From: Amphiscolops sp. MND2022
Taxonomy: Eukaryota
Assembly (NCBI GenBank): GCA_964187785.1
Contig: OZ076409.1
Coordinates: 59,894,001 to 59,958,000, forward strand
DNA: 64,000 nt
Direction: 5' to 3'
Shown here: in pieces, positions 19,382 to 50,360 of the stretch
How positions within the stretch are numbered: the stretch's first letter is position 1
Layout of the letters: each line of letters opens with the position of its first letter
The notes under the pieces: model-generated
Databases searched by the model: none
Seen by the model: the letters and a program-made list of their open reading frames with translations, nothing else
What the model was told of the DNA's origin: nothing
Made by a program: the position numbers and the translations under genes

Positions 19382-19399
19382 GTCGCTTACTACAGGGAT

Positions 19400-21736: not shown

Positions 21737-22085
21737 TCATTTTCCCGACGCAATCCAACCCCCCCAATCAAATCCCCGCAGGCACACCTTCCTTGTAAAT
21801 TCCCTACCGATACAAAAGTCACTTGCATTTTAGAAAAAAAAATTGCACACGAATGAAAGGATTTAACAAGCTGTATAGATAATCATTTTAGTATTTGTAA
21901 CCAAATCAATTGATATGGTTACAAATACTAAAATGATTATCTATAAGGCTGATTAAATCCTTTCATTCGTGTGCAAATATTTTTTTCTAAAATGCAAGTG
22001 ACTTTCGTATCAGGAGGGAAATTACAAGGAAGGTGTGCCTACGGGGATTTGATTGGGGGGGGGTTGGATTGCGTCGGGAAAATGA
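21737..22085. repeat. Near-perfect ~350-bp palindrome without a loop
   Basis: Centre ATCAA|TTGAT at 21909/21910. Arms TCATTTTCCCGACGCAATCC... and ...GGATTGCGTCGGGAAAATGA are reverse complements with a few mismatches. Confidence 0.92.
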
Positions 22086-22088
22086 AGG

Positions 22089-26200: not shown

Positions 26201-26476
26201 TTTTTATTCCTTGTAGCGAAAGATCTAGAAAGATTCATTTCCTTTCATAGGTTCATAAGTGTAATTTGTTTGATGGATCGACAATGAGTTTTCGATTTTA
26301 AAGACTTTGCGACTACAGTGATCTTTCAAACTCATTAAGCAAAAATATAGCATTTGCTAATTCCAGTGCATGTTTTCATTTCGAAAATTTGAGTGTGTTG
26401 TCTTTATTGTGAATACGACGGAAACTCCCGAAAATCTTACATATTTTATTATCTCGAAAATTCAACGAAGTATTAT

Positions 26477-27182
26477 TGTAACGTCCACCAGTCAGCACCA
26501 AATTTTCGATGAAAAATTCGATCAAGGACCAGAAAGTGTGCGAATCAAAATGGCCGTCCTGGCAGGTCGTTGAAATCAAAAAGGAAGCACAAAAAAGAAG
26601 AAGACCCCCCACCCCGACCCAGAAAAGAAGAAAAGACACTGACACGATGTGGAAGAACAAGAAAAATGCTCGGATTTGTGTCATCTCCCCAGAAAAGTGC
26701 GTTTTCAATACAAAAATGTTCTGAGATCCAGATATCCCACAGCGAAGAAGATGAAGAGAATCGCGAATTCAATAGAAACATACCAGAGGTGCCAATCTTG
26801 ATTAATTCTGATGTCATTAGTATTGATTTGCAGATTTATGATGATGTCGGATCTGCCAGATCCTTGTAATGGAGTATTTAGACGTTATTTTCTGAAATAG
26901 AATGCATTTCAGCTAGAACCCTGTTTTCGGACCTCGGGAGTATGTAGGACCGCAGGAAGTCTTTAGGAACGTTTTTACATGCTTGTCCGGACTTTGAGTG
27001 CGCCGGCACGTCGCCACGGAGCTCTAATAAGAGGAGTCTCCACGGTGTTTTGGAAAAGTCCCTAGGAGACCTTTAGGGATGAAAAACTGGTATTTAGGCT
27101 TGTTATAGGACTATGGTCTCCTGTCTAAGCAACCTAAGTATTGTCCCAGTTCTGGTATGTGCGTTACTTGCTTGACGTTACA
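26477..27182 (+). repeat. 5' LTR of element B (706 bp)
   Basis: Perfect 9-bp terminal inverted repeat TGTAACGTC...GACGTTACA; about 3 substitutions versus 44711-45416 by eye. Confidence 0.97.
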
Positions 27183-27198
27183 TCTAGAGTAGTTTTTA

Positions 27199-27216
27199 TG
27201 GCGCCCCACAAGGGAC
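27199..27216 (+). promoter_or_regulatory. Primer-binding site, tRNA-Lys(UUU)-like
   Basis: TGGCGCCCCACAAGGGAC versus the Lys3 PBS TGGCGCCCGAACAGGGAC (3 differences); 16 nt downstream of the LTR. Confidence 0.7.
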
Positions 27217-30200
27217 ATTTTTCCATCTTTTCGCCATAATTGGAGTTTTTCCTGCTTTCCGGCCCTGCTAGGTCTGGATCTAGGAAAACTTGTTGGAGAG
27301 TTCTAGATTGTTTTTATTGCCTTATTCTAGCCCTGTGGGCCTTGTACTAGTGTTTTTCCTGCGTGTCCTGCGTATTTCCGAGGTCTGAAACCGAAAATCG
27401 ACGATTTCAGACAGTGTACCCCTTGTATTTTGATAACACCTGTTGAAAATGTTAATCCGGCCTATCCGGAACTGGTTTTAAAGGGTTTTGTAGCTCCGTT
27501 TCAGTAAATTAGCAATGTATGGGGACTGGGAGGACGAGTGCTGAAGGCCCCAATTAGCTGACGACAGTGTGTGAGCACCTCCGACATCACACCTCCAGTA
27601 CCCCTGTAGTTGCCGTATACCCACGTCAATCGGGTTATATTGCTAATTCTTGCTAATAATCGGCCCAAAAAGCATATTCCCAGGCCTGTTCCCACTAAAA
27701 TTAACTGCGGAAAATACCCTGTGGGTGTTTAGACCAGTTGATAAAAATTTTGAGCGCGAAAACCTTGAAAACAACACCATATATAGCTCAAATACCGATT
27801 TTTGAGGTGTTGAAAGTTGAAATCTAATGGAAAAGGATACGGCCAGTGGGAATACAAAAAAAAACGTTCCATCAGACCTGCTAGGTCAGGAACAGAAAAG
27901 TTTGCTGGGCTAAATTGTTGAAACATTGAGAAAATTAGCGATTTTTATAGAGAAAACATCAATTTTGGCCTAAAAGACCAAAATTGGTGAGGGCAAAGCC
28001 TTGGGCACCACCCCAAGCTCTAAGATTAGCCCAAAACGTTGTTGCCGAGCTTGGTAGTACAAAACACTACTGCCAAGACAATTTTTAGCATTCCCCAATA
28101 TAAATTGACACTTTAACTTCTGATTTTCTTTGATATACATAGACCTGAGTAGAGGACCCCATAGACCTGAGAGTAATAACATCAAAAGTAATAATTGAAA
28201 TAACCCCACTCCTCTAAATAAAGTTGTCACACTTTCTTACTGTACTGTTAGAACCATCCCGAACATCTGGGAACCGAGAAATAAAAAGTTCCTAGGGAAA
28301 ATACGTATTTTTCACATTGTTCCCAGAGTGTCAAAGGTGCAACTTGATAGTTATTTTGGAAGACCTTATATGGAACCTGCCAGGTTTCGCACGCCTATTT
28401 TCCGTTAGTATAGGGCATAACGTTGCAAACGCAGAAAACCGCGAGTAATTCCAACCAGTAGTTGCTGAGAAATAGCCGAAAACGCGTTGTTTTTGCGACA
28501 TTTTCGGAACACTGGAGTAGTGTCCCCAAGATAGGTCGAAATCTCTCCTAGTAGGAGTAGCTCAAAACGGATTGAACCATCGTGTCGACCGTAAAAAGTT
28601 ACGTCAGTGGTGTAATTTTCGTAGCGCTACCATTACTAGTGATCGAGAAATCTTAGCCGCAGTTTTGCTCAAAAATTGTACGAAACTGTCAAAAAAATCG
28701 AATTTTAGTTGAGCATAGTGCAATACCTTTGGAGTATCCCAGCACTGAAATTCTTGCAGTTTCGTACACACAGCACTAGGTCCCGACGATTTGTGCATTT
28801 TGAGCAGCTTGCTACTGTCCAAATTGGAGAAATTGACATTTTTGTGAATTTTTGCCCCAGGAAGTGACAAATAGGGTACATCATAGTTTTGTCAACTCGG
28901 ATTGCGGAATATTGACCTGGGCACCCCGCTATTTTGTTTTTCTGTTACGTGGGCATAATTTACGCTCGCATACAAAATTTCAGCTGGCTAGGAAGCCTAG
29001 AAGGCGAGTTTGACAAACTTTTGAAAATTTCACAACATAGTCGATTCTTCAAACAACATTCTGAAGCGACCCCAAGTCTTATATAATCAATTTTGGCGCA
29101 ATCGGCGGTGATTTTCCCACGATTTGGTTACAGTAGTATACCGTGTTAATTTTTCAGGTCGCTAGTTGCTCTAGAAGTGATATTCACCTTCCCCAGGCGT
29201 GCACTTTGGCGAAAGAATTGCCGATTTTGAGAAATTTTGCGAAAAATTATACACTTTTCGTAGGTGTAGTTGCAAGTGAAAGTTTAAGCGACCCTAATTC
29301 TACACCAGGCATCATAGCACGTCCCATTGAAGTAATCGGAATAGAGCTAGCTCAACCCTAAAACCTTGGGTTTGTCAAAAAGCTGTCTACGAGACATAGG
29401 AGTGCAAAACACAAAAACTGTATTTTCTCTCCCAACGACCACCAGGGTCACCTAAGTGCAAACTGATAGGTGTATTCAGGTTTGCCTCGACTAAGGAGTG
29501 ACGCGAGAGAGCTAGAACGCAATTAGGAGTTCTCTAGGAGACGTGGATAGTGGACGCGGTGCGTCTCGAGACAGAAAATTGAGTATAGTAGCATTCGAAA
29601 TTGTAAAGAACTTTGTTTCCATTGATCGTGCTACGATCAGATTACGATAACTCTCTTGTTTGAAAGTGTCCTAACACCTACTCACCCCCAAGGTCTAGTT
29701 CCCAACACCCCTTGTTGTAGCAACACCACAGGTGCTCTCCTATTGAAAGTCAGTACGAGTGACATAGTGTACGCTCCCAGAAGAAAAGCGCGGTGATTTC
29801 TTGAATAAATCTCTGCAAAGTTCTGATAGCGCGCCAAAACCTTTAGTTATCCCAACCACATAGCCTGTGGCTGGATAAAGCGTAGTTTAGTGTGAATAAC
29901 TGTAAAAAAAACTTAAAAAGCTTAACTTTAAATTTGCGTAGAATAACTATCTCCAGTTAGTGGGGAAACAAACCTTTCTGTTCTGATTAGTGGTGACTAA
30001 CACCAGTGCATGTAATCTTGAGTTAGTGCATGTAATTAGGAGTGTGAAGTTTATGACAGTCAGCTGATCTCGAAATAGAATCAAGAGGGCGATCACGAGC
30101 TACAAACTCCAGAACTTAATAGTACGACAGTTTAGTTAGAATATCTGAGAAAGGGATATCAAAACTTCCATTTTGAGTTGCCTTTAATTTAGTTTGTTGA

Positions 30201-30269
30201 AGAGAAGGAGTGAGTGAAAGACGAAAGAAAATCTAACTTAGTTGAGCTGCAAAAACTGTGCAAGTAAAA

Positions 30270-32910
30270 ATGAGTTTGAGTGAGTGGGAATACTTGTTAT
30301 TCGTGAGTGAGACATCATTGTAGTCTAGTGAATTCCATGCTACCAACCCGTTCGCGAACAACATAGAAGAGTTGCATACCCTGAGTACACAAGCTGAAAT
30401 AGCACCGCTGGATATGATCGCCGACCTGTTTTTAGACGACGTAATGTCAGATAACGTGTCTAACATTGAGCAAAATTCGCAAATTGCGCATACAAGCCAA
30501 GCAAATTCCTCAAAGATGTCCTTTGATAGCACCGAACTTGCTAATGAGACTCCCATGAACCATTCCAACGTATGGCCTCCTCTGAACACTTCCGTGATTG
30601 TTACCGGGGACTGGCCGAACTCGAATAGAGAAGTAGCTACTAGCTCCGATATCAGTAAGTGGGTTGAGAATATGAATGTGGGCATGACTTTGGGAGAAAT
30701 CACCCCTCACTTACTTGGGCACAAGTGCGGACCCGCTGGGTTCCGGAATACCAGTGTTTGATAGTAGTAGAAATACACTGGGTGACACAACGATAGCTCC
30801 TTCGGAAAGTCAGCCGGGAAAGCGGAAGACCAGAAAAGGAGTGACTCTCCAGAACTATGCCTCCACTACACCACCATTGCTGGGTCCCAGCACCTTACGA
30901 CTGGAACGCACGGTAGCGCCCCAACACTCCGATGCCGGCAGTGCAGCATCCCCAAATTCGACGATCGCCAGAGGTATCAAAGAAACTGAAGCCATACGAG
31001 AAGATTTTGGACGTAGTATGGAACAATTGAAACGAGTCCAAGTAAAGTTAGCCCAGGAAAACACTGACCATGTCCGTCGGGCAGAAGTTTTGGTGATGGA
31101 AGTAGAAGAGTTACGAAAGGAGGTGAGTGAGATCAAGATGGAAGGACGAGTCAACCAGGGCAAGATAGAAACCTCCGTGGCATCAGTCAAGGACCTGACG
31201 GAAAAACGTATATCGGAGATGACGGCAATAATGGTGCAAAGAGATCGGCAAGCGGAAGAGCGCCTAAAACACATGTCCGAAATGATGCACCACAGAGATT
31301 TAGATGTCGACAAACGCATGGTGGACCTCATGACTACGGTCCAGGATTTAACCCTAGGGGTGAAGACCGTAGTGATGACGACACCAAACCGTCCCTCACC
31401 CGTGCCGGTGGCACCAAACCCTGCAGACATACCATCTACGAGTGCGTTTCCTAGTAAGCACCCCTCCTATCGAGAAGTTGCCAAATGCCAATGTGTGACG
31501 AAACCGGATCAGAAAAAACAGCCAAAGTTACAACCACCCGCAGCGTACAAGCAGGTGCCGATGAAAACCCAATTGTCAACAACCACTCAAACTGAAGTAC
31601 ACCGCTGTGACATATCAGGCCCTCATTCATTTGACCCATATGCTAGAGGTGCCTCAACGACTGGAGATTATTACTCAGCGGCCAGTGACCTAATGCATAG
31701 TAACATGAAAACAGCATCAGGAAGTACCGAATATCAAACTGCTGTTTCGTCAATGCTTGGCACAAAACGCTCAATGTTACCCCATAGTAACGACCAATTA
31801 CGGCCATTGGCCTCTAGCACGCAAAGGAAGACAATCTCGAGAAGGAACCTGAACACTGGAACGGTGGAAGGAGCTGCCAAGGACAAGGTCAATGCTCCGA
31901 ACCCTATACACAGCCAAGCGTTGGCGGAAGCAATAACCACCGCGATGTCCAAAGGTCTGGAGCCATTATTAGCAGCCAAAGAATCCAAGAACAAACCTAC
32001 CAAGTATCGTGGCACACGCGATGGAATAGTGGATGGCTTGCTAATGCTGATGAGGCGTTACCTGGAAAAAGCCCATGCAAAAGACACTCCTTTAGACAGA
32101 GCATGGACCATTGTGGAGTTCCTAGAAAATGAAGCACGGGACTATATTACGAATAAATCAGAAGCGGAACGCGATACTGATGAAAAAGTCTTCGCGCTGC
32201 TAGCACGAAGCTTTGGAACAGGATCTAATAAGATCCAAATACAACAACAGTTCCGTACACGTAATCAGTCCCCGGATGAAGACTACATGCAATACCTTGA
32301 CGCATTGGAAGGTTTGCGCAGCCAAGGTTTTCCCAACGAGGAAGTTGCGTTGAGGCGCTATGAAATTATGCAGAAGTTCATCGAAGGGGTACGAAGTTAT
32401 GAGTTGAAACGAAACCTTGCACTCATGTATGCACAGGAACAGTATGTGGACACACCCCCCAACTGTGGAGGCCTTACGATTCACGGTACAACAATACCTG
32501 CGTATGCGTGGTTCGACACGTTCGGAAAATTATTCTGCACCACAACAACAACAACAGCCGCCTATCGCAGCGAACCCGCAAAACCAAGCACAGGCACAAG
32601 CCCCTCAAGCGCCCAACGCCCAGCAACTCCCACAACAGCCTCCAGCTTTCCGACAACAACAGCAGCGAACATGTTTCAACTGTCGAGATCCTTCACACTT
32701 TGCAGCTGATTGTCCTTTGAAAGACCGAGCACGGAAACCAGTACAGCAAATAGTTAGGTCGTGTCGCACGAACACAGCTGGAGAATGGGTGTGCCCATCG
32801 AACCCACGCGGCATGAATGATGACTTAATGCCTGCAACCCTACCAGAACAAGGAACATCAGCATTTTGTGTTAATTGTGGTCATGTAGGTCACGTGGCAT
32901 CTGATTGTAT
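30270..32910 (+). pseudogene. gag: Gag region of element B (long N-terminus, coiled coil, capsid-like domain, two CCHC knuckles)
   Basis: Joins ORFs 30372, 30715 and 32417. Capsid-like KPTKYRG...QFRTRNQSPDEDYMQYLDALEGL. Knuckles CFNCRDPSHFAADC (32672-32713) and CVNCGHVGHVASDC (32867-32908). In-frame TAG at 30321, frameshifts near 30710 and at the C-run near 32460. Start codon inferred. Confidence 0.88.
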
Positions 32911-35900
32911 GACGCCTCACAATGTTGCAACGGAAGAACAAGTAAAAGCGGCGTGGTACGCCCCGGTCGCAAACTCAACAGACTTTTGCGATTCAGAGGA
33001 TCAAATAAGGGTGATCTCGACTTCAGAAGACGGAGGCCCATCACGCCCTGTGGTTGTAACTTGTGGTGAGAAACAAATCTTGACGACACTTGAGGCACCA
33101 GCGCCTGACTGTACTGAAACACTAATATCCATCCATCTGTTGTTATCCGCGGAACAAAAGGCGCGTCCAAATCTCACATTAGCACAATTGAAAGAAGAAC
33201 TGTGCCGCAATACCAGTTTGACGATAGCTTCGCGACCACTACCCCACTTTACCTGGAATGATGAGACCAAGCTGGCCCAGATACAGAGAGTGAAGACAAT
33301 CGCACCAGTCCCCGTAGCGATCACAGTTGACGGAGTGGACATGAGGTTTGATTCGATTGTTGTCCTGGAAGGACACTTTCCGCTAGGCCTATATCTGGGC
33401 AGGCAAGAACTGCGTTGTTATAGCATTGGAGTGCAAGATGCACAAGGAGAGGCCCAGATTGATGAGCGAGCCTCGCTAGTAGTAGCCATCGGAACTCCTC
33501 TGCAAAAGCCGATACCACTTTTCGGCATGATTGACACCTGTTCGGGAGTTTCCATCCTTTCATTGAGTGCGTACAAGAAGATTGCTTCCCAGCACACGCT
33601 GAGCCTATCACCATATGACGTTGAACTCTTCGCTGCCAATGGCAAAAGCATCACCACCGTGGGTATAGCCGAAGATGTAAACTTTCAGCTCGGCGGATAC
33701 ACTCTGAAGACCAACTTTGTAGTCATAGCCGATCAAAATGGGTCAGAGGATTTCCTCCTGGGTCGCAATTTCTTGCGCACATACAACGTGTTCGTGGACC
33801 TGACAGCAATGAAAGTGACTATCCGTGATCCCAAATAACCTCGAATCTTCAAAGCCACTCATGAGGTAAGCGACCACGAACCATCGTTTGTAGTTTCCAC
33901 TGAAGACGTAATACTAGGTCCATTCGAAAGGAAGATTGTGCGCGCGAAAATCATCACGCAACAACCTGACATTTTCCTGTTTCGTAATGTAACGGTCCAG
34001 TCATGTAGCATAAAGTCCAGTTCAGTCTTTGTTTCAGAAGATACACTGACTTCTGTGGGAGAAGGAGGTATAGTATTTTTAGCCATCCGAAACCAAACTG
34101 ATAAAGAACGGGTGAAAATCAAAGCACAAACTGTTATTGGCAAAGCGGCGCTTACCACTTTTGTATTGAACTCTGTTCTTATGCAAACTGAAGGTGAAGC
34201 TTCGAAGCTTTCTGCCGAATATGTAAATCAAGTACATAGAAACTTTGATATGGACACCAGTTCAGAATTCAGTTCCTTTGCCCAAAACTTTTTATCTTCG
34301 ACCGAACCGTCTGAGGCAGATTTATCAGATAATGAAAAGCGCAAAAGGACAGATCCACAGCTGCTAAAAGCAATCCCAGGCCCTGACCTCTCTTCCGTCC
34401 TTTCTTCATGGGGGGGAAAAGGCGAGAAACAAGTTAGAAACTATATTAAATGAGTATGAAGACCTATTCATGAAAAATAAGTCTGACATAGGTAGGTGTA
34501 AGATTGCAAAGCACAAGATAGAGCTAGAGCCGGAGGCTATACCACACCGAGAAGGAGCTAGGCGAATGTCCCCTGATAAGGCGGCGAAAGCCAATCAGGA
34601 AGTGCAAAATTTGCTGGCCCTTGGTCTGATACAACCCTCCTACTCTCCGTGGGCCAGTGGCATAGTCATGGTGAAAAAGAAATCAGGCGAGCTTCGCTTT
34701 TGCTGTGACTTCCGCCCGCTAAATGATGTAACAGTGAAGGACGCATTTCCACTACCCAGAATCGATGAAAGCCTCTCGAGGATTGGGAATGCAAAGATCT
34801 TCACGAGCATCGATTTGGCGTGGGCCTTTTGGCTAATTCCACTGAAGAAGCGTGTTCGCAGAAAAACGGCGTTCGCGTGTGAACTTGGCCTGTTTGAATG
34901 GCGGCGCATGCCCTTCGGGCTATGCAATGCATCGGCCACTTTTCAGTGATCGATCACGAGAGCTCTACAGAAGATCCAACAACGACATGGAAGCGTTAGC
35001 ATGGCATACATAGATGACATAGTGATTGCGACAGAAACCATTGAAGACCACTTGGAAAGAATCAGAGAAGTGTTCGAGTGTCTCAGAGAGGCAGGTTTCA
35101 AGATGCGAGCAGAGAAATGTGACTTCATGCGCACTGAAACCAAGTACCTCGGAAGAGTAGTTTCGGCCAAAGGCATAAAGCCTGACCCGGCTGCTGTTAG
35201 CAAAATCCAAGAATGGATGCCCCCGAGAAACAGAGAAGAATTACAGAGCTTCCTTGGATTTGCGAACTACTACCGAGATTTCATTCCTTTTCATGCTGCT
35301 AAGGTGCAACCTTTGCAGGAGTTGTTAAGGAAGAACCAACACTTCTACTGGAAAGAAAGACACCAAGAAGCGTTCGATGCAGTAAAGCAGGCATTGGTCG
35401 ATGCCACAGCTTTGGCAGCGCCTAACGAAGAGGGACGTTTCGTTCTAGACACGGATGCCAGTGCAGTTGCTATAGCCGACATACTGCACCAAGAGCAACA
35501 ATACAATGGGAAAACCATTCTTCGTCCTATTGTTTACGGCAGCAAGTCACTGACTAAAACACAAAGGAATTAAGGCGCCCCGAAGCTGGAAATGTATGCA
35601 GTATTCTATTTCATCGAGAAATTTCATTCCTACCTTGCAGGTCGGGAATTCACGCTGCGTGTGGACAACCAGGCTCTCTCATGGCTGAAGACATATTCAA
35701 TGGATCAAGCCATGATTGGACGCTGGATTGCGCGCCTCGACCAATATCATTTCAACACGATTCACAGACCGCGCACACAACATAGAAATGTGGATGGTCT
35801 TAGCAAAAGGACCAATGACTACGTACATCGGGAGAAGATCGTGGAAACTCTACCAGAAGTGAGCAAGGGAGTCAGCTTCATGCCCCAGAAAGACTACGAA

Positions 35901-38765
35901 GAACTCCCCACTGTGCCCTATATCGACAAACATGGAAAATTTATTCCAAACCATCCAGAGCTTCCACCAGAAGCTCGAGCACAACTTCCAGTGCTGTACA
36001 TTTTGAAAAAGCCACCAAAAGAAGACCTAACCTCAGACCCGTCCTTGAGTTCCATACCATGGTACCCACAGGTGCAATGGGAAACAACTCCGACTTCGAC
36101 CGAATTGTATCCTTAGCGTAACAACCAAAGTGCCGGCGGCACGTCTGGACACCACCCAACGTGACCCAGCAGTGCGTAGGTTGCCAACGCAGTGTCAGGA
36201 ACAAGCTGACGTCCTCAGGCTAGTCGGGACCGAGCTTCACGAGCATCAGTCAACAATGCGCGGATTGAAAGATCTTCATCTAGCTCAAAACAGAGATGTA
36301 CATCTGCTAGCGTTGAAGAAACTCATGAAGAACGAGCCATTAGAGGATACGTTGTTCCCCGAAGACATGCAGGACTTTGCCAAACGGTACTTTCACCAGA
36401 AGAAAGACTTACTGTTCCTGAACCAGAATGATATCTTGTGTGTCAACTACATTCCGCAGCAACGCGCGATGCACATACGACCGTGTATGATCGTCATGCC
36501 CCAGCTATACCAACACGAAATCTTGTACAGAGGGCACGACGAGTCAGGACACCAAGGCGTTGGTAAAGTGTTGGCAAGAATCCAGGAGTCCAGGAGCGCC
36601 ACACTTGGCCAGGCATCAAGCGTGATGTTGTCAATCATATTATGCACTGCTTAACATGCCAACAGACGAAGCATCCCGCTGGGAATCCCTGTTATCCGTT
36701 ACAAAGTATCAACAGCAGCAACTTTAATGACCTGGTGCAGTTCGACCATTTGAAGTTGTGCAAAACAACGTCAGGAAATAATGGATTGCTAGTCGTCATC
36801 GACCATTTCACTAAATTTGCAGAGGCAATCCCATGTGCACACGACGAATATGACGCCCAGACGACTGCAAAGATTATCCTGAACAAATGGTTTGCAAGAC
36901 ACGGCACTCCTGCCAGGATGCAATCAGACAATGCCACCAACTTTACTGCTGAGATTGCTCAAGAACTGATGAAAGCTTCGCAAGTAACCAAAATAACGTC
37001 TACTCCAGCTCATCCGAGAGGCAATGGTTCAGTGGAACGTCAAAACCGAACATTACTGACCTTGCTCCGAGTCTATACGTCTCGAAGAATGCTTGACTGG
37101 GATGAACACATAGACGGAGTCTTGGGTGCTTATAATTCAACCAGACATGCAACGACAGGATTTTCCCCGTATATGCTCCAACATGGCGCAGAAAAATCCA
37201 TTCTACTCTCGTTTATATACACAGAATTCGCAGCGCAAGAGTTTGAGTCCAAAGAAGAATTTGTGGAGCACCTACTTGCTCGACAACAAGAAATCCACGA
37301 ACTTGTTCGCCGAAACACACACCAGGCGCAAATACGACAAAAACAGAAGTTCGACAAGCATTTGAAAGCAAAAGCTCACGCGGTGGGTGATGCTGTTTGG
37401 GTTTTCTGCCACATAATTCCTAAAGGTGGCACCCGCAAACTCCTTCGTGCCTGGCGTGGACCTCACAAGGTCACAGATGTATTACAAGATGGAAGATTAT
37501 ACGTTTTGGATACAGGACAAAAGGTTTACTTCGAACGCCTGAAGATGCATGTGCCTGCGCCGTGGGATTGGGCGGCACATCAACCCTTTGGGTTAGACCA
37601 GAATGTTGCCATCATTGCAGACCCATACGTGGAAGAAAGTAATGAGGAAATAACGTCAGACATATCACGTGACTCATTTCTTCCAGAACAATTGCCAGAG
37701 GCATCATTCGAGATGGAACCGACCGCGCCCGTTCCCCCAAGCACGATTCAAACACGTACTCAGTCTGCTTTGGAACGGGGAATCCCTCGAAGACGATTCA
37801 GTCATTTTGGATACCCTTCTGAGTCGGAATCCGACCAAGAACAAATGGGTCAACCCATTGAAGAGCCACAACAACCAATGATCTACCCTGATATCGATGA
37901 TTTGGAACCACTGTATTCCGATCAAGAGGAAGTCAGGCCAGAACCAACACCAAGTCTGATACCCTCGCCAACAGGAACATCAGCACCATTGCTCTCAAAC
38001 CCAGCTTTAACCGACACATTGAGCAATTTTCCACTATTCAGTTCTCGAGCTGGTAGCTCGGCAGGACTACAAACTATCGAGGAACCCGAACCCCAAGAAA
38101 GAACTGACAGAGAAATTCCAGAACCCGGACACAGCATGGAAACATCGCCATCATCGGGGAGAACCGCGAGTAGAAGAGGCAGGCCAAGAGGCAGACCTCC
38201 AAATCGTAGAAGAGGAAGTGCCAACTCATCAAGCAGAGCACTTGCAAGCACGCACCGACCGTACACCAGATCGAGAGGCAGATTGCGAACCAGAACACAA
38301 TCTCAAACCTTGGAACGTGCAATGTCACTACCCAACATCGCAGAAAGCTTATCATCAGAGCAACCAGAAGCGGAACAAACAACAACCTCACGAGCACCAC
38401 CCTATTTGCTGCGACGCAATAGAACTCCTAGATATCGCTGCGGAACATGTGGTTCCCGTAACTGTAGTTGCCTCAACCTAATTAGTGGAAAACCACCAGA
38501 CAAGCGATTGGCCCGGGGAGTAGACGCTCTTGCCCCAGACACAGCTGTTACTGAAACAACGGAAGACCACATGCAACACATCCGAAGCATACAAGCTAAG
38601 GACCAAGAGGTTCCACAAGTACATCATGTTGTGATTACCGTGGAAAAGACCTATTCGAGCATTGGACCAGCCGTGGTCCCACCCCTGGAAACCACACTAA
38701 AAGCCATGCAAGAAACATCTCCCACTCCCACCATCGATGATGTTTGGAAGAATAGAACCAAGTGA
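32911..38765 (+). pseudogene. pol: Pol of element B: protease, dUTPase-like insert, RT, RNase H, integrase with GPY/F module, long disordered tail
   Basis: PR IDTCSG...LLGRNFL; RT SPWASG, RFCCDFR, MPFGLCNA, YIDD; RH DTDAS, KLE, VDNQAL; IN HHCC (HDESGH...CLTC) and DDE (QFDH, SDNA, VERQN). Stops at 33836, 34947 and 35571; frameshifts at the G-run near 34410, near 36110 and at the 8-bp duplication TCCAGGAG (36581-36596). Confidence 0.95.
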
Positions 38766-39794
38766 CACACGAATAGCAATGGTCCGCTGTATCACCGCGC
38801 GAAGACTATGGCAGCAATATGGTGTAACCTCCCCTCCTGGAGATGGGTATCACCCAACGGCTGGTTGGTGGCTTTTGGTCACCTCTTTGGACGAAACATC
38901 ACTAGTGACTCCAGGAACTTTACTGATTTGCTTGGAAAATTTGCGTACGCTTGTAGAGTTCGAGGACACCTAGTTCGAGAGTTCCATCTAGCAGATATTT
39001 ATCGTGGGAAACTCCTCAGTCAACATTGGTTACAGCTACTAGCTATCATCTTTTGTCGCCAAGCCAAGGTACGCCTGTTAGACAAACACACGTATACATT
39101 CGAGAACCCAGTGACCGTGCTGGAAGCACTCTCCGTAGTTCCCGATTGGTCTTGCACGAACTTGGGAGACAGACCTTTACGCAGAACAGTGTGGCAAGAC
39201 CGTAAGGCCATTTTGGATCATCTCACACCAATTCAAGACAATCAAAGCACAGTCACGGGAAAACTATTGATAACGCATCCGAAGATCAAACCGAACTATC
39301 TATCATGGATCTATTACGAAGAAACTGACATTTTGCAAGCCAGGGGTACCGTAGTAATATGCTGTCCGGGAGATCTTCTGTCACACTCAGCAATGGCGCG
39401 CTACGTCATCAGGGAATATGGCCAGGAAGAAATTTTCCGACTACGCCCAGCCGTAGGAAAGGCTATTCACCTCACCAGATCACCCGCAACGCCGTTGAAT
39501 AACGAAATGTTCCTGTTAATCACCAGAGCCTCTAGTAAACACCCCATTTTACATGATGTGCTACATCTGTGCCTGATAGACCTGGTGCAGAAGCTCACAC
39601 GAGCACAAATCATCCGTATCCATCTTCCCATCTATGACCCTGAAAGATCAATCAACATGCTACCAGCTTGGTATTCAATGTTGAAAGATCATTTCATTGA
39701 TTCCAATATCGACATAGTCCTCCATGATAGGGTGTATGTATCGATTGCGTTAGTGAGGACACACCATAACCATGTAAAATACAAATTTGACTGA
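38737..39794 (+). CDS. Tandem TARG1/Poa1p-like macrodomains (probable C-terminal extension of Pol)
   Basis: 39306-39728 aligns by eye with TARG1/OARD1 along its length: IYYEETDIL, VICCPGDL..SAMA, REYG, GKAIHL, FLLITR, IHLP, HFIDSNIDIVL. A more degenerate copy spans ORFs 38737 and 38808. Confidence 0.7.
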
Positions 39795-39970
39795 ATCACT
39801 GTGGCATTAAAAAAATATGGGAGGCCACTAGTCCTGTTCTCAGCACATGTGTTGTTTGAGTCAATCTCTGAACTAGGTTTTAACGTGAATTGTCGAATCT
39901 GTTTTATCTTATTGTCTTTTAACGTTTATCATATCAATTGCAGTCATCAGCAATAGTATTTTAGTTCAAA

Positions 39971-39998
39971 TTGACGTCTGTTGTTTTCTTTTTTCTAG
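39971..39998 (+). promoter_or_regulatory. Candidate splice acceptor upstream of the accessory ORF
   Basis: TTGAC branch-like motif, then a pyrimidine tract TTGTTTTCTTTTTTC and TAG, about 105 nt before ATG 40104. Confidence 0.4.
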
Positions 39999-40103
39999 TT
40001 CAGTCCTGTCAATTCCCATGCACTTGACGCAGCCAGTCGTATATCATCATATTTGCAGTATATCCACCATAGTCATTTATCCAAGGTGCTACCTATCTCT
40101 TTA

Positions 40104-43100
40104 ATGGATCAATCGGCTAGAACCCGCATGCCAACTCCATCAACAACAAGCTCGCAACCGAGCACCAGCAGAATGGACCAATCACAACCGCCGACGATTG
40201 CCACGCAAGAAACTCCCGTGTCCTCGCTGCCTGTCGAAGAATCTCAAACCAGAATTGACCAGCTTGGTCTGGTCCAATCGACCCTACAAGAGGCCCTTTC
40301 TCCATCACTGGTGACCGGGATTGCCATACTAATTGCTCAAATGCAGTCTCTCGAAATACATCCGGACTTTACCCTCTCCATATCAATTGGAATTGGATCT
40401 TACCGCAGAACTGCGGAATTCCACAATGGTGCGTGGCAAGGTCACGATCTCACCCACCATTTTGATGACCACAGATCGCACCTGAGATATGGCGAGCCTA
40501 ATAGGCCTCCCATGGAGCAGCAACGACCTCTTCAAACGAACCTGATGCAAGCACCTGCAATATCGTCGATAACTGCCCCCGAGAGCGCCCACGACTGTCA
40601 ATCAACGCAACCATCGCCTACACAGCAATTCACATGCCTTTTGCCAACAGTGCCTCCGCCGATATTGACGCTCCACCATCATCCGCCCCAATTAGTGTCA
40701 GGCGCCTGGAAGAGAACAACAAACTCATGCTCCCTTCTTCTTTCAGGGGGGAAGGGGTAGAAGAAGCGCACACGAGCGCGCAGAACGCTGAAGATGCCAC
40801 CCAAGATACAAGCCAAAGACCGAGAACCATAATGATGCGGAACCCGCTCGACGTGCCCATCATGACAGATATGATCGGATTTTAAGACTCTTACGATGCC
40901 TTGCTACCTTCAACGTCGCAGGACCCACATCACCTAATAGGTTTTCAGGCCGACCCAGAACGCCAAGAACAACAGAAAGGCAAGCAGCCAAGGCCCCTAT
41001 CGATCTCCGCGACGTTTTGAATCGAAAGGAACAAAGCAAGATCGAACAGCTAGTCCAAAAGAAAAGGGCCAGAGACTTAGCCAATTCGGATGCAGCGAAC
41101 TCCAGCCCAAATCCCTCCCCAGTGCAACAGCCGGAGCCTAGGCGAGTGCGATTCTCTAATGAGCTCCTATCGCAGACAGAGGCACGACAGCTTGACATTG
41201 CTGCCAGAGACGCGGTGCGTCTGCAGCGAGAAGCGAAATCAGAGAATCCAGACTCAGGATTGGATGTGCAGAAATTCGAAACAGCTACCAGTAAAGGAAA
41301 CCCAGAGGATGTGGAGAACCTCGAAAAAGCAACGATCGGAATGCATTACTTGAGGCCCGTAAAGAAGCCAACACTCCTTCTGGATCGCATTCCTCCCTGG
41401 TTCGAGAGAGTAAGGGAGAATCTTCATAAAGACAAGTCATCATTGGTGAGACCACTCCCCTCCAAAGTAAAATTAGCCGTACAACGACCGGCAAGACACG
41501 ATGACCAACTGATGAGAAGCCGTGATTTCATGAGAGATGTAACAACCTTGCTCCCCATGGGCAAAGAGATGTTGCAAAAGACAAGGATTGCCTTGTTCAT
41601 GGACTCTACGATGAAAGCAACGGCGAACATGAACAACACCCTGATGGAGGACAATTCCATTCCCCCCGATCCTGATATATAGCAATATGATTGACCACTT
41701 GGCTCTTCGAGGAACGCTGAAATACTTTGAAGGAGGCAACTGTAGACTGACGGAAGAAGTAATGACAGGAGAGGTAGTTGCGTACGTCGAAGCAATGAAG
41801 AATGTGATCAGGCGGGTGCAGCGAATGAAGCCCGTCGTAGGGGTAGTCTTTGTGTCGCCCCCGGGATACGTATACTTGCCTAAACCACTCCAGCAACTGT
41901 TGTATCTAGTATCAGAAGCATCCTACTCACAAAATTTGTCATTCTACATAATAGCACCGAACCTGAGAGTGAGTGCCACAACCTGGCGTCCGGGTGAGAA
42001 CTCTTATTCTGCATTCTTGGCGGAAATCTCGAAAGCCTTGCAGGCTTGTACCGGATACGAGGGCAACTCTCAGTTGTTGCCCGATGATGCTACTGCCTTT
42101 GACTTTGGCATGCAAATGGCGCATCGCTCCTTTGATGAGAATGGAGTACGCCGAGTCAAGGAGCCTAATGAAAAGGAACGAGCAAACATGATTGACAACG
42201 GATGGTTTGAAAGGAGAGATGAGTCAACGTTAGATGAGAGGACGCACAACGCTAAATTCCACAAAGAGCTGCTAGCTCTCTTCAAGAAGACAGAAGGAAT
42301 AAAACAAACTCGGACCGACGCGACCGTTTTTCCAGTGGCGATACAAGCGATCGACGCGAAGCCCAACATGGTTTCCCCCACCCTGGTATTGTTAACAGTA
42401 TTAGCTCAGAAGACAGCGCAAGAAAACCAAATGAACCGAGAGCATTCTTACCAATCTTGGCATGAGACGCTGCAGGTGACCTTGAATGAAACAGCAGAAA
42501 GCCATGGAATTCCCTTCCCCATATTCTTGTATAATATCTCGCCATTTTGGGTACCAACGATGGTGCAGCGTGAAAGCAGCTTAGATGAGCAGCAAGTTAG
42601 ACTGTATGTAGAAGCAATGCAGAGGGCCACAATTGCTGAGATCCTGGCCTACCTGATGGCCGTTGGTCTAGGCGCCGTCTACAAGGGCCCAGTGCACCTG
42701 GTGCAAAAATTGGTCCTAGCTAAAGCCAACTCCTGTCTACTCAGTTTTCTCATATTCACCAAGAACCAGTGGAATTGGATTAACGCCATTCTAAACACCT
42801 TGGACCCCGCATGCGCTTTGAACTTGCGCGCCCAACTCGCCGAGAATATCAAAACACTATTGGCTTGGGTTTACTCAGCCTGGGTCAATGTCTCTGGCGT
42901 GATGAGCACTTTAGACGACTCGCTGAGTCAAAGACCCAATAGCAATAACCTGCCAGGTTTCCTATTCCCGTCGCAGATAGCCAGCCTCATGTTGATAGAA
43001 ACTGAAGATCTAGTCCCCATGATCGCACCCATAGTCTGGCCTATATTCGGTTCAATGATGGCCCTGAGATACCCTACACAGCCGCTTAGAGTTGCCGCAA

Positions 43101-44241
43101 AAGCACCTACATTATCTATTCTACATTTCGTGGATCCTGAAGACGACGCCAGACAACCAGATTTTCAAATGCTAGTGCGCAACTTTGCCAACTTCCGACC
43201 ACCAATGGCATACACGATTATTAAAGACAAGAAACAGGTCGAGTACAATTTCAGTGCCCTGATCCGAGCCAGAGCGCGGTGCGCTGTTCCTATGTCGCTA
43301 GAACTTCATCCAGTAGAATGGTTTCACGCTCCTGTAGAACCCAGCACTGGAGAATTGCAAGGCTTTACCAGCTGGGATGAGCCAGGTATTCTCCGAGTAC
43401 TAACCAATGCGGAACGACGCCTGGGTGGACGAAGAAAAGGCTCCACACTAGAAAGACTCCAGCATCGAGTAATACAAGATGTATCCCGAATGTACAACCC
43501 TCGAGTGACACCGCAAGCCGATACAGTCAAAATCCTGTCTGACACTACGCATTGGGCAGACCCGCCGATAGTGGACAGAATGATCCACCAAGGATTTCAA
43601 ACTCTGAAGGCGACAGTTCCGAAAATCGCAAGAGAACCCAATAGAAAGACCTTGCCCCTGAATGAAGAGATGCCGAGCAATCCACAAATGGCCATGGAAA
43701 TCTTCATGAGTCTGATAACCAAGCAGAGGGACGAAGGAAATACCGTATATGACAGTTATTCAAATGCAATTTGGACTTTCAAAGAACTATTTTTCCGATA
43801 TGGAGCCAAGACCTCGCAGACCAGCTGCCAGAACTAAGCCCAGCAGGCTCGACCTCAACGAGACAGGCAGCAGGGCACGAGGAGGTTTCTACTGCCGAAA
43901 ATACATCAACTTCCATGGTGTCAACCTCAAGTATAATCAGCATTGCAATAGCTGCAGCACCAACCAACACCGATGTATCCATCCATAACCCCGAAACAGC
44001 TAACCCAACCACAGTCAACACCACCAATGCTACTCCCAATGATCAGACAGTGCCGCTAGAAGCTTTGGAAGTCACGCCCACGTCGTTGACGAGAACACTA
44101 GCAGCCGATATCGAATTAGAATTGAACGAACTACCTAGCTTGAGTCAGCAAAACCTGCCGTCATCGGAAGTATTGGCCGTATCATTAAATGAAGTGCTGC
44201 AAGATGACGATACTACTATGGATGACACTGGCCATGAATGA
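40104..44241 (+). pseudogene. Accessory ORF in the env position (~1,380 aa reconstructed) with an SGNH/GDSL-like domain and an unknown helical domain
   Basis: Overlapping or abutting ORFs 40053, 40634, 41017, 41687 (716 aa) and 43771 tile the region on the sense strand, with about 4 frameshifts. Motifs RIALFMDS, PDI..., YVEAMKNVIRRVQRMKPVVGVVFVSPP. Confidence 0.75.
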
Positions 44242-44702
44242 AACAAGTACTGTACTCGGCTAATCAAACCAAACTAACCAAAACCGTATTACGCCTCAGC
44301 AGTTATCAAAACAATAAGTGCTATTTTAGTTAACAAAGTATTAAGATTATTTTGCTAGTGTAACTACCCGGTGGGTAGGTCCCAGCTTGGTGCCTGCCTA
44401 ACTGCCAAAACAAGTGCAATTAAAGTTTTAGTAAAAATCTCTCCGCTTCTCTGGCCAAGTGTCGCAAAAGTGCAACCACCCTTAAAAGAACTTTTAAACT
44501 AGCTTGGAACGAATGGTAAGAGTTTTTAAAGAAACTGATTTTTATTGTCCCAGAATGATCAAAAAGTGCTAAAATAAAAAGTGCTAAATCGAAATTTTGA
44601 GGTAGTAAGATCTAAGAGAAAAACTGAAAATCACGTTGCTAAAACCATTTGTAAGTAGTGATGCATCCTTCTCCGTTTGCCGAGGACGACAAACAGTTGC
44701 CC

Positions 44703-44710
44703 GGGGAGGA
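44703..44710 (+). promoter_or_regulatory. Polypurine tract of element B
   Basis: GGGGAGGA abuts the 3' LTR. Confidence 0.8.
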
Positions 44711-45416
44711 TGTAACGTCCACCAGTCAGCACCAAATTTTCGATGAAAAATTCGATCAAGGACCAGAAAGTGTGCGAATCAAAATGGCCGTCCTGGCAGG
44801 TCGTTGAAATCAAAAAGGAAGCACAAAAAAGAAGAAGACCCCCCACCCCGACCCAGAAAAGAAGAAAAGACACTGACACGATGTGGAAGAACAAGAAAAA
44901 TACTCGGATTTGTGTCATCTCCCCAGAAAAGTGCGTTTTCAATACAAAAATGTTCTGAGATCCAGATATCCCACAGCGAAGAAGATGAAGAGAATCGCGA
45001 ATTCAATAGAAACATACCAGAGGTGCCAATCTTGATTAATTCTGATGTCATTAGTATTGATTTGCAGATTTATGATGATGTCGGATCTGCCAGATCCTTG
45101 TAATGGAGTATTTAGACGTTATTTTCTGAAATAGAATGCATTTCAGCTAGAACCCTGTTTTCGGACCTCGGGAGTATGTAGGACCGCAGGAAGTCTTTAG
45201 GAACGTTTTTACATGCTTGTCCGGACTTTGAGTGCGCCGGCACGTCGCCACGGAGCTCTAATAAGAGGAGTCTCCACGGTGTTTTGGAAAAGTCCCTAGG
45301 AGACCTTTAGGGATGAAAAACTGGTATTTAGGCTTGTTATAGGACTATGGTCTCCTGTCTAAACAACCTAAGGATTGTCCCAGTTCTGGTATGTGCGTTA
45401 CTTGCTTGACGTTACA
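44711..45416 (+). repeat. 3' LTR of element B (706 bp)
   Basis: Near-identical to 26477-27182. Confidence 0.97.
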
Positions 45417-46012
45417 TATAGTTCATTCTTACTTTTATGATTTCACTAAGATGACATGGGCTCTTGGTAGGCATAAGCACGCGGTAGGGAAAATTCGAAA
45501 CAATTACATTGCAAAAGGGAGCTGGAAGCGACGAAAATTGAATTTAAAATAGTCATGAGGAAACATGTAGTCAGTTTAGAGATGACAAAACTCCACAATT
45601 TTGAACTACACTTAGGGTACCAAAAAGCAAAAGACTCCTAATACAAATCTCAAATCGCAATAAATCTGTACAAAATCAACAGACACAAAAGTCATTGGAG
45701 CAAAACTTTCTTGCATTTCATACATAACAAATGTCTTCGCTAGGTTTTGACTTCTGGTATCCGAAAGGTATCATTTGTTATCTCGAGACAAAAAGTACCT
45801 TTGACTTGGAGACTCTAGCTTTTAAATTTAACACTTTTTCACCCGTCTCTAAAATTTACACCGCAATACGATCACGAAATACGAAATCTTCAGTTTTCAC
45901 TCCGTAAAAATATTGTTTCGACAAAATTACAAGAGATTTTGGCTTTAAACTTTTGAATAAAGCATTCTCAGAGTATTTGGTAAATATGAAAGTTGAAAAC
46001 TGGTGTCACAGC

Positions 46013-49000
46013 TGTTCTATTCTAACAAACTAGATTTTAAGAAAAGAAAGGTTTCCAAAAGTTAATCTCTTTTGTAAGTCTAGATCGTAGATATCAGAAT
46101 TGTATAAATGAGATATCTAATTTAGTATTGATGTAATATGTATTTGTCAACACTAGTAGGTATTCTAGACATATAAACTAAATGGTTTGGAGTTCTTGGA
46201 ACCGAAACTCGGCAAGGTCATGAACCGGAATGAACCCGAATGTAACATTTCCCCCTCTTTCTTCTCCTCCTTCTCAGTTCTGGTTTGAGGTTCCTGGGGG
46301 TGTTCCTTCTTCTGGTAGAAAATCTGCGTGCTTTTGGATTTTCTCCGGTTGTGGTGTTCCCTTTGGTCGGATCCACAAGTTTCCTGTAACAAGTACAATT
46401 TCTTTTTAAGCATTTTATTTCTAACCCCGAAAATTTCCAGTGTATGGTATGGTACCGTGACTATTCGGTTTTTTACTATCTCTTGTGGACCGTCTTATTC
46501 TTGTTTTTATATTTTCACCCGATATCTCGTCGTCGGGATTCAGTTGTAGCGCATCTTTTTCTTCCGGGTTAGTCCGGATTGGTGCATATCGTCCATCCCG
46601 TTCTGAAGTATCATATACCTTCGGTGTTGGTGTCCCGATTTCTTCCGGCATCTCTTCATCATCATCATAATCATCTTCTTCCGTGTCGCTTGCCGTCTGT
46701 TTTCGGTTTTGGACGATCTTCAGTTTTCCGTTTAGTATATCACGGAGTATTTCACCCCATCTGCCGTATTAATCATCGAGGCCTCAGAGGCAGTGTCTGT
46801 TTTTTTGGGTTTATCTCGTCGTGGGTGTTTATTGTCGTCTCTCTTCGTGTTTTCTTCTCGGTCTGAAATAATGGTCCCGAAATAAACTCTCTGTTAATAA
46901 AATTTCCGGTATCCGTTTTTACGATATTTTCAGTTCCGCCTTTTGCGGTTTGTACAGGTCGTTTGATGGTCGTATCGGCGTCTCAGTGTGCCGGGTCGGG
47001 ATAGTGCGTTCCGTTGTTCAACAAGTCTTTTTGTCTCTGGACTGTTATTTCTTCTTCTAATAAAGTCCATAATCTCTCGGGTGGCTCCCCAGTGATAGAA
47101 GTTTTCGCGATCCATATTGTCAATGTTTTCAGTATTTGATATTTGACTAACTTTCAGAGTGCTATTATCGGACTGCCCGGATGTTGTTCTCTTGTTTTGT
47201 TCGGTTTCGTTCACGTGGTTTTTGTTCTCGAATGTTCTATTTAATTGTGATTGGTCGGTTTCATGCTCAGTTGTGTGTTTGGAGTTATTCTTTGTCCTTT
47301 CGGTGATGCAATTGCTGCGTTTTGATTGGTTCTCGAATAATTGTCCGTGTTTCAAGTTCAGTTCAGCTTGTTCGGCGAGTATATTAATTACGTATTCTTC
47401 ATCGTATTTTTCTTCCAGTGTGGCTCCCCCTACAGGATCTCTGCTGAGATAATCGGTAAATTTCAAATTACTGCCGGCTATATGTTGTATTGATATGTCA
47501 AAATGTGTTAGGTGGTCTAACCATCTCGTTAATCTTGCGCTGTATTGTTTGTTACTCCGGTTTCTTTTTATTCATGGTTCTAATGCTTGGTGGTCTGTAT
47601 ATAAGTGAACATTTTTTTTCCGTAAAGGTAGAATCAGTATTTCTCCAATTCCCCCCACGACTGCTAGCAGTTCTAAATCACCGATGGAATATTTTTTTTC
47701 GGTATCGTTCAAATATCTACTTCCGTAAGCTATTGGTTTTGTATTTCCGTTATCTTGTTTTTGCCAAATTGTAATGCCCAGTCCGGTTGTGCTAGCATCG
47801 GTTGTTACTAAATTAGCTTTATCTTTTGCGTAGTGTGCCTCCGGTTAGCATCTGTTTTATTTTTCCGAAATCTTCGTCTTGTTCGGTTCCCCAATTTAGC
47901 TTCGTTCGTTTTCAAGAGTTTCTGTAATCGGTCTGTTCTTCCCGAAAATTTCGGAAGAAAGTTAGCCATGTATTGTATTGCTCCGAGAAATGATTTTAAT
48001 TCTTTGGTATTCACCGGTGGATTCAATTTTAGTATGGCTTCAACTTTTTCTTTGTTCGGTTTTTCCGTTTCCATCAACCTCGTGGCCCAACCACTTTGTT
48101 TGTTTCATGAAGAACTCTGATATTTTCTTGCTAGCTCGGTAACCGGCTTTTTCTACCTTGTTTAGGACGTCAAATAGTTTCCTTTCGTGATCTTGTTTGC
48201 TTCCGCGTGTTACTATTATTATGTCGCCCATCCACGCTGGGGTACAGTATCCGAGCGATCGGTCAACTTTTTCTTGGAATAATGTGGATATGTCGGCAAG
48301 TCCGTAGAACCCTTTTTTATATTTAAATATATACTAAAATTTCCTCCGGTTAATGCGAATACGCATTGTCTGCTGGTTTCTTCGAATAGTTTCATTTGGC
48401 CGTAAGAGTAATCCAAGTCTATTTTAGACATGAATAGATGCATTGTCCGGTCGCGTGTTATCTCTACCAAAATTTGATGTAGCAATTCTTCCATGCTCGG
48501 CATATGTGGTCAAGGGAGTCTAATGCTATTTTACTGTCTTGTCGCTTTTTACTGTGATTACTACCGGAGATACAAAACAATCTTCGTCAACATCTTTTAT
48601 TTTCTCCAAGTGTCCGGATTTGATTAGTTTTTCTAATTCTCTTCCTACATCTTCTTGTAGGTGTAGTGGTACCGGTCGGGCTTTTTGTTTTACCGGAAAA
48701 TTTCCGGGCTTTAATTGTATTTTTATTTCGGTATCTGTTATTGTCTCGTTGTTTTCAAATAGGTCGGGAAATTTGTTTATAAGTCTCTCCTTTTCTGATT
48801 GGTTGTTTTCGGCCAATTGTATTCCGATGGTTAATCGGAATGTTTTCAACCAATCCATTCCGAGAAATGGTGTTATATCTGGCCTTTCGGTTATCAGAAT
48901 TTCCATCTTCTGTTTGTTGTTTTCGTATTCGATGTTTACCGGAATTTTTCCCCGCAATTTCACCTCGTTTTTATTTACAGCTTGGAATCGTTTTGTTATT

Positions 49001-50360
49001 TTTTGAATTTCGGCATGTTTCATGATTCTTTCGTCTGGTGGCATTATCGTTATTGGTGATCCCATGTCGATAATAAATTCTTTCTTCACTCCGTTTATTT
49101 TGATAGTTGCTGTGTAGTGTTTGTTCTTTTCTTCAATTGCTTTTGTTGCTTTGAAGTGATGTATGCTCTCTTATGATTCGCTGGTTGATTCGTTCAGTTG
49201 TTGAGTTTCGTTTTCGGTTAGTCTTTTCACTGTTCGGTTATTGTATGTTCTTTGTCTGCATGCTTTTGCAAAGTGGCCTTTCTTTCCGCTTTTGTTGCAG
49301 TTTGCTTCTAATGCCGGGCATTTGTATAACGGTGACCAGTTTGGTGCATTGCAAAATCTTCATGGTTGGTTGGTTTCCGAATTGTTTATTTTTTGGTTTT
49401 GTTCCGAATCTTTCCATTCTCTGTATCGGTTCTTTCTTTTGTTTTGATCATTTGTTTCTCTTTTGATGAGATCAATGTTTCCGGTATTGTATTCTTTTTA
49501 TTTTTCTTTTCGTATTTGTTTTGCTTTATCAGTTCGATTATCTTCTTCAGTTCCAGCGTTTTTTCTTTCATTATTTTGTCCCGTAGTTTCTTGTCGGTTA
49601 TTGCGGTCATGTATTTGGAGATTAGTAATTCTTCGGCCGAAAATGCATTCTTTTTCAATTTCGATTAGTCGTCTCCAAAAATCCTCCGGTGTTTCCTCTT
49701 CTGATTGTTTCGCCCAGAAGAAATCTCCTCAGTTTTTGTAAGCGTTCCGTTTTGGTAGGGAGTATTCGGTATATTACCGGATTAGATCTTTAATTTTTAT
49801 GCTATCCGGGTCTGAATTGTATTCTGCTCGGGTTATCTGGAAAAGTGCTTCCGGTCCCACTCCCCAGATAAAATCTTCTTGTATTGCTTGTTCTTTTGCG
49901 CCCCAACCGGAATTGGTTATGTCTTCACCTTTTAGTAAGGGTGTGATATCGATCTGGTGTTCCCGTTTTGTAAATTGTTCGAAACTTTCTAGCCATTGTC
50001 TCGGTGTGAATACCGGATTACCGTCTGTAGCTTTGGTTTCAAGATTCGGTACTATATTCTTTCCTGCCATGGTTTCCGTTCGTTGATAAGATTTCGGTTT
50101 ATTTAAAAATTCGCTGACTACGCCATGTTCTATTCTAACAAACTAGATTTTAAGAAAAGAAAGGTTTCTAAAAGTTAATCTTTTTTGTAAGTCTAGATCG
50201 TAGATATCAGAATTGTATAAATGAGATATCTAATTTTGTATTGATGTAATATGTATTTGTCAACACTAGTAGGTATTCTAGACATATAAACTAAATGGTT
50301 TGCAGTTCTTGGAACCGAAACTCGGCAAGGTCATGAACCGGAATGAACCCGAATGTAACA
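46013..50360 (-). mobile_element. Mag-like Ty3/Gypsy element lacking integrase (element C, 4348 bp)
   Basis: 235-bp LTRs (46013-46247, 50126-50360; about 4 mismatches), perfect TSD ACAGC (46008-46012, 50361-50365), minus-strand PBS TGGCGTAGTCAGC (tRNA-Ser-like, 50113-50125) and PPT AAAGAGGGGGAAA (46248-46260). Confidence 0.95.
46421..50070 (-). pseudogene. gag-pol pseudogene of element C
   Basis: Gag from ATG 50070, protease FIIDMGSP, RT (PVKQKARPVP, KIDLDYSYGQ, damaged WMGDII), RNase H ending FTDYLSRDP. No HHCC or DDE motifs. Confidence 0.9.

Follow-up and report, generated by a model that had tools for sequence, protein, structure and literature searches.

The role that non-Env ORF3 genes play in LTR elements has yet to be settled, and the window (the whole 64,000-nucleotide stretch of DNA analysed) presents a case in point, as an earlier note had placed at 40104-44241 a large accessory ORF that occupies the env position of an LTR element without being a classical Env. 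We therefore ask to what this reading frame belongs, whether it is maintained, and what its product may do. The 4.1 kb at 40104-44241 is the third gene (ORF3) of a Ty3/gypsy LTR element of 18.9 kb (26477-45416). The paired TG...CA LTRs, the polypurine tract and the order protease-reverse transcriptase-RNase H-integrase are those of Ty3/gypsy elements, and the gag and pol domains of the window copy follow the gypsy order, all of them interrupted by stops or shifts. The element is composed of the following features.

26477-27182, plus strand: 5′ LTR (TG...CA, 706 nt), 99.4% identical to the 3′ LTR
27199-27216, plus strand: primer-binding-site-like motif, 16 nt past the LTR, recognized from the sequence and kept in siblings
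30324-33838, plus strand: gag region with a CCHC knuckle (zf-CCHC, E 1.5e-8) and an aspartic protease (E 1e-4, below the Pfam cut-off), broken
34368-37500, plus strand: reverse transcriptase, RNase H and integrase (Pfam RVT_1, RT_RNaseH, rve and Integrase_H2C2), broken by stops
38766-39794, plus strand: C-terminal pol tail of ~330 aa, in frame with integrase in siblings
39983-40003, plus strand: splice-acceptor-like site (T-rich tract and YAG), ~100 nt upstream of the ORF3 ATG
40104-44241, plus strand: ORF3, in five pieces in the window copy, delimited by alignment to a sibling ORF
44703-44710, plus strand: polypurine tract, recognized from the sequence, with 445 exact tract-plus-LTR junctions genome-wide
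44711-45416, plus strand: 3′ LTR, paired with the 5′ LTR

The primer-site-like motif may resemble a tRNA-Lys site. The leader that precedes gag (27183-30320, ~3.1 kb) is apparently non-coding, with no frame of 100 codons within 27183-30230. Between protease and reverse transcriptase, positions 33839-34453 hold ~200 codons without a Pfam match that look, presumably, dUTPase-like by eye; a dUTPase occupies this position in rotifer and Burro elements. The target-site duplication is 3 bp in the window (26474-26476 and 45417-45419), and among six siblings with both flanks read it is 3 bp in four, 5 bp in one and absent in one, the norm for Ty3/gypsy elements being 4-6 bp. In the pol polyprotein a long low-complexity linker leads into the conserved ~330-aa tail, which retains 38-45% identity even in the distant clade. 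By eye this tail resembles what we presume to be two macrodomain-like (TARG1-type) repeats, an identity that Pfam and PDB profile searches did not support. To the right of the 3′ LTR lies a smaller, decayed second LTR element on the minus strand (46013-50360) with reverse transcriptase-like frames and 235-nt repeats that are 98% identical, and a ~3.6-3.8 kb tandem duplication (97% identity) with an inverted repeat at its junction occupies 18249-25697.

The five sense ORF pieces described earlier as tiling 40104-44241 all align to one sibling ORF at 86-94% identity, and correspond to residues 1-210, 191-295, 298-522, 553-1270 and 1272-1415 of its single frame. The gene is in pieces because the window copy has lost sequence in four places where three siblings retain it (1 nt near 40673, 19 nt near 40973, 89 nt near 41650 and 1 nt near 43805). 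The uninterrupted 716-aa core that had been singled out is a real open stretch (41687-43834), but it is only the longest (fourth) piece rather than a natural unit, because the SGNH domain discussed below begins in the preceding piece. In siblings ORF3 reads as single frames of 1,357-1,451 codons. The composition first noticed in the window recurs in a sibling, where Pro, Ser, Thr and Gln make up 34-41% of the N-terminal part and the acidic tail has a net charge of -20. Stop-free frames of ~1,400 codons or more make up 32 of 131 scored matches in one search of the 1.07 Gb genome and about 110 of 150 in another, counts that were made by eye on the best of about 2,900 candidates scored and are not copy numbers. 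Open frames of this length are far beyond chance. Part of ORF3 is tandemly duplicated internally in some copies. The parts of ORF3 map onto the window as follows.

40251-40490, plus strand: small conserved N-terminal domain of ~80 aa, conserved across families at 28-45% identity
41425-42061, plus strand: predicted SGNH-fold domain, with the Ser codon at 41605, N-x-x-D-H at 41684 and Arg-Pro at 41987, placed by the sibling model, structural matches and motif counts
42062-43380, plus strand: conserved helical region followed by a G-F-x-F-P...PIFG...RYP region, placed by conservation, hydropathy and the sibling model
About 43010-43065, plus strand: hydrophobic segment within the G-F-x-F-P...PIFG...RYP region, placed by hydropathy
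43805-44241, plus strand: acidic, Thr/Ser/Pro-rich, weakly conserved tail, placed by composition and sibling alignment

The SGNH-fold domain is interrupted near 41650 in the window copy. Breakage in four places might be expected of decaying passenger DNA, or of a host gene that this copy alone had captured, yet hundreds of copies, purifying selection, descent together with pol and relatives at 25-35% identity make such an origin barely credible. In agreement with a resident accessory gene in the env position, ORF3 lies downstream of integrase in all 50 ORF3-bearing loci fetched. These loci, which were selected for long ORF3 frames, comprise 20 close copies, 10 members of a family at 55% identity and 20 distant loci (27-51% core identity), and every one of them has integrase and the pol tail upstream, such that the gene is multicopy and linked to pol at distant identity too, and is not a host gene particular to this copy. 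The LTR pairs of all 15 elements checked at both ends (13 with ORF3, 2 without) are 95.4-100% identical. Comparisons between subfamilies A, B and C give dN/dS values of 0.05-0.07 for the SGNH region, 0.05 for the helical region, 0.07-0.11 for residues 1031-1280, 0.16-0.18 for the N-terminus and 0.24-0.32 for the tail; with dS at 0.7-2.5, near saturation, these figures are approximate, and most comparisons that involve family D are saturated. ORF3 is thus under strong purifying selection. For families that are only 28% identical, the same two main clades with similar subgroups are recovered in trees of the pol tail (19 rows), of integrase (16 rows, the match being too short in three of the 19) and of the ORF3 core (18 rows, by a quick tree alone), which fits descent of ORF3 with pol and would favour it over repeated capture.

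Relatives extend beyond the close family. A profile search of 1.84 billion representatives returns 458 matches, the best 150 of which span 25-98% identity, and word-based searches return 6, 34 and 3 related proteins. Almost all ORF3 relatives in the database are ENA proteins. One relative, a fragment labelled as a hypothetical protein of a Bacteroidota MAG, is encoded on an 816-nt contig, and a bacterial origin was not accepted on its account. The best matches in the source genome are at 98% for P0166, 36-37% for P0157 and 32-33% for P0176, and because the latter two find nothing closer there, they likely come from other genomes. A distant ORF3 relative is also located ~4 kb past the right end of the window (C1:59961828-59962634).

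Is the product, then, an envelope protein after all? Searches of Pfam, PDB sequences and structures give no match to a known Env, and each of the three hallmarks reported missing from the window is missing from the eight ORF3 proteins scanned. The hydropathy scan provides no N-terminal signal peptide (N-terminal hydropathy at most 0.46 in seven of eight proteins, 1.37 in one). The R-x-K/R-R motif is absent from four of the eight proteins and occurs at scattered, unaligned sites in the other four, with none in subfamilies A-D, so that no furin-plus-fusion-peptide pattern emerges. Over the last 120 windows of 19 residues, hydropathy peaks at 0.39-1.49 in the eight proteins, which leaves no C-terminal anchor. 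The conserved ORF3 columns contain no cysteine. Of the three hydrophobic helices pointed out previously, two fall inside a confidently modelled helical domain, whereas the third, around PxxxPIFG, is a conserved segment in a poorly modelled region; its Kyte-Doolittle value is 1.6-2.3 in all eight proteins and the model pLDDT there is under 50. This internal segment could touch a membrane. Together with the env position and an env-like acceptor, it allows for an unconventional replacement of Env that would carry particles from cell to cell, for which a small membrane protein described, in the accessible part of the source, as giving envelope-independent transfer in Drosophila elements is a precedent. 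We consider such a role quite improbable, as signal peptide, conserved furin site, conserved cysteine pattern and C-terminal anchor are all lacking, the Drosophila fusogens are short and ORF3 has 1,400 aa. Moreover, no fusion protein appears among the structural matches listed, which were filled by the SGNH domain and barely covered the C-terminal part.

The SGNH-like part recognized by the earlier note is borne out at the level of the fold by an AlphaFold model and structural searches. Residues 425-1130 of a sibling, modelled from a 92-sequence alignment, give a mean pLDDT of 70, with values mostly at 85-95 over the first 250 modelled residues, at 75-93 in the helical region and mostly under 50 beyond ~960. 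An earlier model from eight close sequences had reached a pLDDT of 33.5 and no Foldseek match. The model predicts a five-stranded, flavodoxin-like alpha/beta SGNH fold at ORF3 residues ~448-689 (Z 11.8-12.1, rmsd 3.4-3.9, about 180 aligned residues), and SGNH proteins lead a wide structural search and take up nearly all of its list. PAF-acetylhydrolase 1bwp matches model residues 27-264 with Z 11.8 and rmsd 3.8 over 181 residues, and in a second structural search 3dt6 matches with Z 12.1 and rmsd 3.6 over 179. Foldseek agrees weakly (best PDB E 0.012, PDB range 0.01-0.1; 9.6e-4 to a phage lipase/acylhydrolase). Pfam finds nothing significant for ORF3 in the window pieces, siblings or distant members, and sequence and profile searches of the PDB return no match; a profile-profile comparison of ORF3 with the genome's own Pfam-found SGNH domains, a weak test, scores within the shuffled range. 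Because these comparisons did not detect SGNH, the assignment is a structural one. Designed PPR repeats, which reached low E-values in a profile search, were rejected as sums of 9-10-bit repeats.

The earlier statement that the rest of the core matches nothing likewise holds for sequence searches: the region at 42062-43380 has no Pfam or PDB sequence match, the small N-terminal domain has no PDB sequence match, and about 440 further conserved residues and this small domain have no sequence match. No match for the C-terminal region appears among the structural matches listed either, which, one domain having filled these lists, is not evidence of a new fold.

The catalytic blocks of the SGNH domain were counted over 25 full or long ORF3 members, down to about 27% identity. 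Block I retains Asp-Ser (Asp in 23 of 23, Ser in 22 of 23), and the block II site is Gly in 1 of 24 (register uncertain). Block III reads N-x-x-D-H rather than G-x-N-D, with Asn and Asp in 25/25 and His in 23/25 (register uncertain), the remaining two having Asp or Tyr. The block V Asp-x-x-His is absent from the 25 members, which also lack a conserved acid at the third position upstream of the Arg in an Arg-Pro pair that stands just before the last helix (Arg in 25/25). In thioesterase I the catalytic residues are Ser10, Asp154 and His157-Pro158 (PMC10792757, accessible part). Model residues 74-261 align to residues 0-177 of its structure 5tid, and counting from the ends of this alignment puts Ser508 on Ser10 and Arg665-Pro666 on His157-Pro158, if the ends are ungapped. 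Motif order and the ends of the aligned ranges thus suggest that the invariant Arg-Pro likely occupies the catalytic His-Pro site. According to this model, the pocket has likely lost canonical catalysis with five polar residues kept fixed.

How such a protein would be made is indicated by the sequence in front of it. In all nine family representatives a T-rich tract closed by YAG stands upstream of ORF3 (read by eye, with no chance control), at about 100 nt from the ATG in six and 6-12 nt in three, and this conserved acceptor-like site makes it likely that ORF3 is produced from a spliced message. We tentatively propose, at a little short of an even chance, that ORF3 is a cytoplasmic pseudo-esterase docking protein rather than an envelope or an enzyme. 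The ~1,400-aa protein would be translated from the spliced message and remain in the cytoplasm, where the SGNH fold without its catalytic histidine would serve as a binding pocket. The ligand may be anionic, such as phospholipid or RNA, because of the Arg in the pocket and of two precedents. The ZfL2-1 ORF1p esterase of the L2/CR1/RTEX non-LTR elements binds anionic phospholipids, and membrane targeting has been proposed for it (Schneider et al. 2013, PMC3905857, accessible part); it too is an SGNH domain borne by a retroelement, but it differs in its non-LTR host, its ORF1 position and its enzymatic activity. The OSK domain of Oskar has an SGNH fold without the catalytic triad and binds RNA, as far as the accessible parts of PMC5785220 and PMC10792757 describe it. 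As the charge of the ORF3 SGNH domain is near neutral, RNA binding is not favoured. Disordered arms, pocket and helical domain would together dock the particles or RNA of the element on membranes or granules, and the protein would be a helper that may be lost or borrowed in trans.

The fixed Ser, Asn and Asp and the near-invariant His speak against docking in so far as they could equally serve a rewired catalysis. An active enzyme in which the Ser nucleophile works with the block III His/Asp and the Arg is unlikely in our estimate, though it carries some weight; it might, for instance, be a deacylase or acyltransferase for lipids or glycans and assist the particle in crossing or remodelling membranes. 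In favour of it, these five residues are invariant or nearly so across the 25 sequences, the SGNH domain is among the regions of lowest dN/dS, and the rotifer ORF3 and ZfL2-1 esterases are precedents. It is weakened by the absence of the canonical block V Asp-x-x-His and block III G-x-N-D, and by the two replacements of the block III His.

For elements with and without ORF3, the genome offers a comparison. On contig C1 there are 35 of the exact tract-plus-LTR junctions, of which 20 lie beside known ORF3 matches (by eye), 9 accompany whole or partial ORF3 and 6 are without it. The six ORF3-less elements, which are 95-98% identical, retain the acceptor-like site and a pol frame that is open over a long stretch, with ~0.8 kb of unrelated filler (longest ATG frame 51-92 codons) replacing ORF3. 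Three that were placed in trees are nested among ORF3-bearing subfamilies, and the filler motif is found in 49 copies in the genome (five sites inspected). These sequences therefore indicate a secondary loss of ORF3 in a lineage that went on to spread, unaided or helped in trans, and the best reading is that ORF3 is dispensable in cis.

The spread of an ORF3-less subfamily also suits a role in counter-defence. In this view ORF3 would resemble Oskar in binding RNA or granules, would have disordered arms, and would shield the element RNA from small-RNA silencing in trans, leaving ORF3-less copies to free-ride. As in Oskar, a small N-terminal domain and a long linker, here of low complexity, accompany an SGNH domain that has likely lost its catalytic function; Oskar uses such a domain for binding (OSK: Z 8.3, rmsd 6.2). 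We consider this role improbable, since OSK ranks only 48th in the structural search, well under the esterases, and lacks the Ser that ORF3 retains, and since the net charge of ORF3 reveals no basic surface. Oskar is a host germ-plasm protein without the helical C-terminal region, according to the accessible accounts.

Non-Env ORF3s with an SGNH domain are already known from gypsy-like elements. In the Vesta LTR retrotransposons of bdelloid rotifers the GDSL/SGNH ORF3 is reported to have its S-G-N-H residues intact, and spliced messages are the norm for ORF3s (Rodriguez, Kenefick and Arkhipova 2017, PMC5408684). Vesta and the present elements share the gypsy-like organization, a non-Env ORF3 after pol, the SGNH domain and family-specific gain or loss. 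By the description of Vesta in the accessible part of that paper, the present ORF3 differs in that Arg likely stands in for the His, in that it lacks G-x-N-D, and in that its SGNH domain sits within a ~1,400-aa protein with the about 440 further conserved residues. Burro, a giant gypsy element of planarians, is similarly very large and high in copy number, with extra domains, but its apoptosis and ubiquitin domains and true Env lie inside one polyprotein, and the accessible part of its description mentions no SGNH ORF3 (Arkhipova and Yushenova 2019, PMC6431247). What may be new here is the likely His-to-Arg form in a 1,400-aa protein with further domains. For gypsy elements, our literature search, which had repeat databases and most subscription journals outside its scope, returned no description of an SGNH ORF3 with altered catalytic residues. 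If true, this form would add a case of a mobile element reusing an enzyme fold without its catalytic base, and several hundred database sequences would come together in a protein family whose scanned members have no Pfam match. For the role of such genes, a natural comparison is provided by the hundreds of young copies, by the conservation of ORF3 and its predicted pocket, and by a close subfamily that has spread after losing the gene.

A more far-reaching view is possible but doubtful: the elements may form an ancient, undescribed 19-kb gypsy clade, with a macrodomain-like pol tail and 3-bp target duplications, whose 1,400-aa accessory protein would be of a new class. In it an SGNH fold, rewired (Ser, Asn, Asp, His, Arg) to give a new site for binding or catalysis, would be joined to a novel helical domain, and the protein would serve in trans as a public good exploited by the ORF3-less subfamily. 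Elsewhere in the genome, multicopy families of canonical SGNH domains display G-D/S-S, G-x-N-D/T and D-x-x-H.
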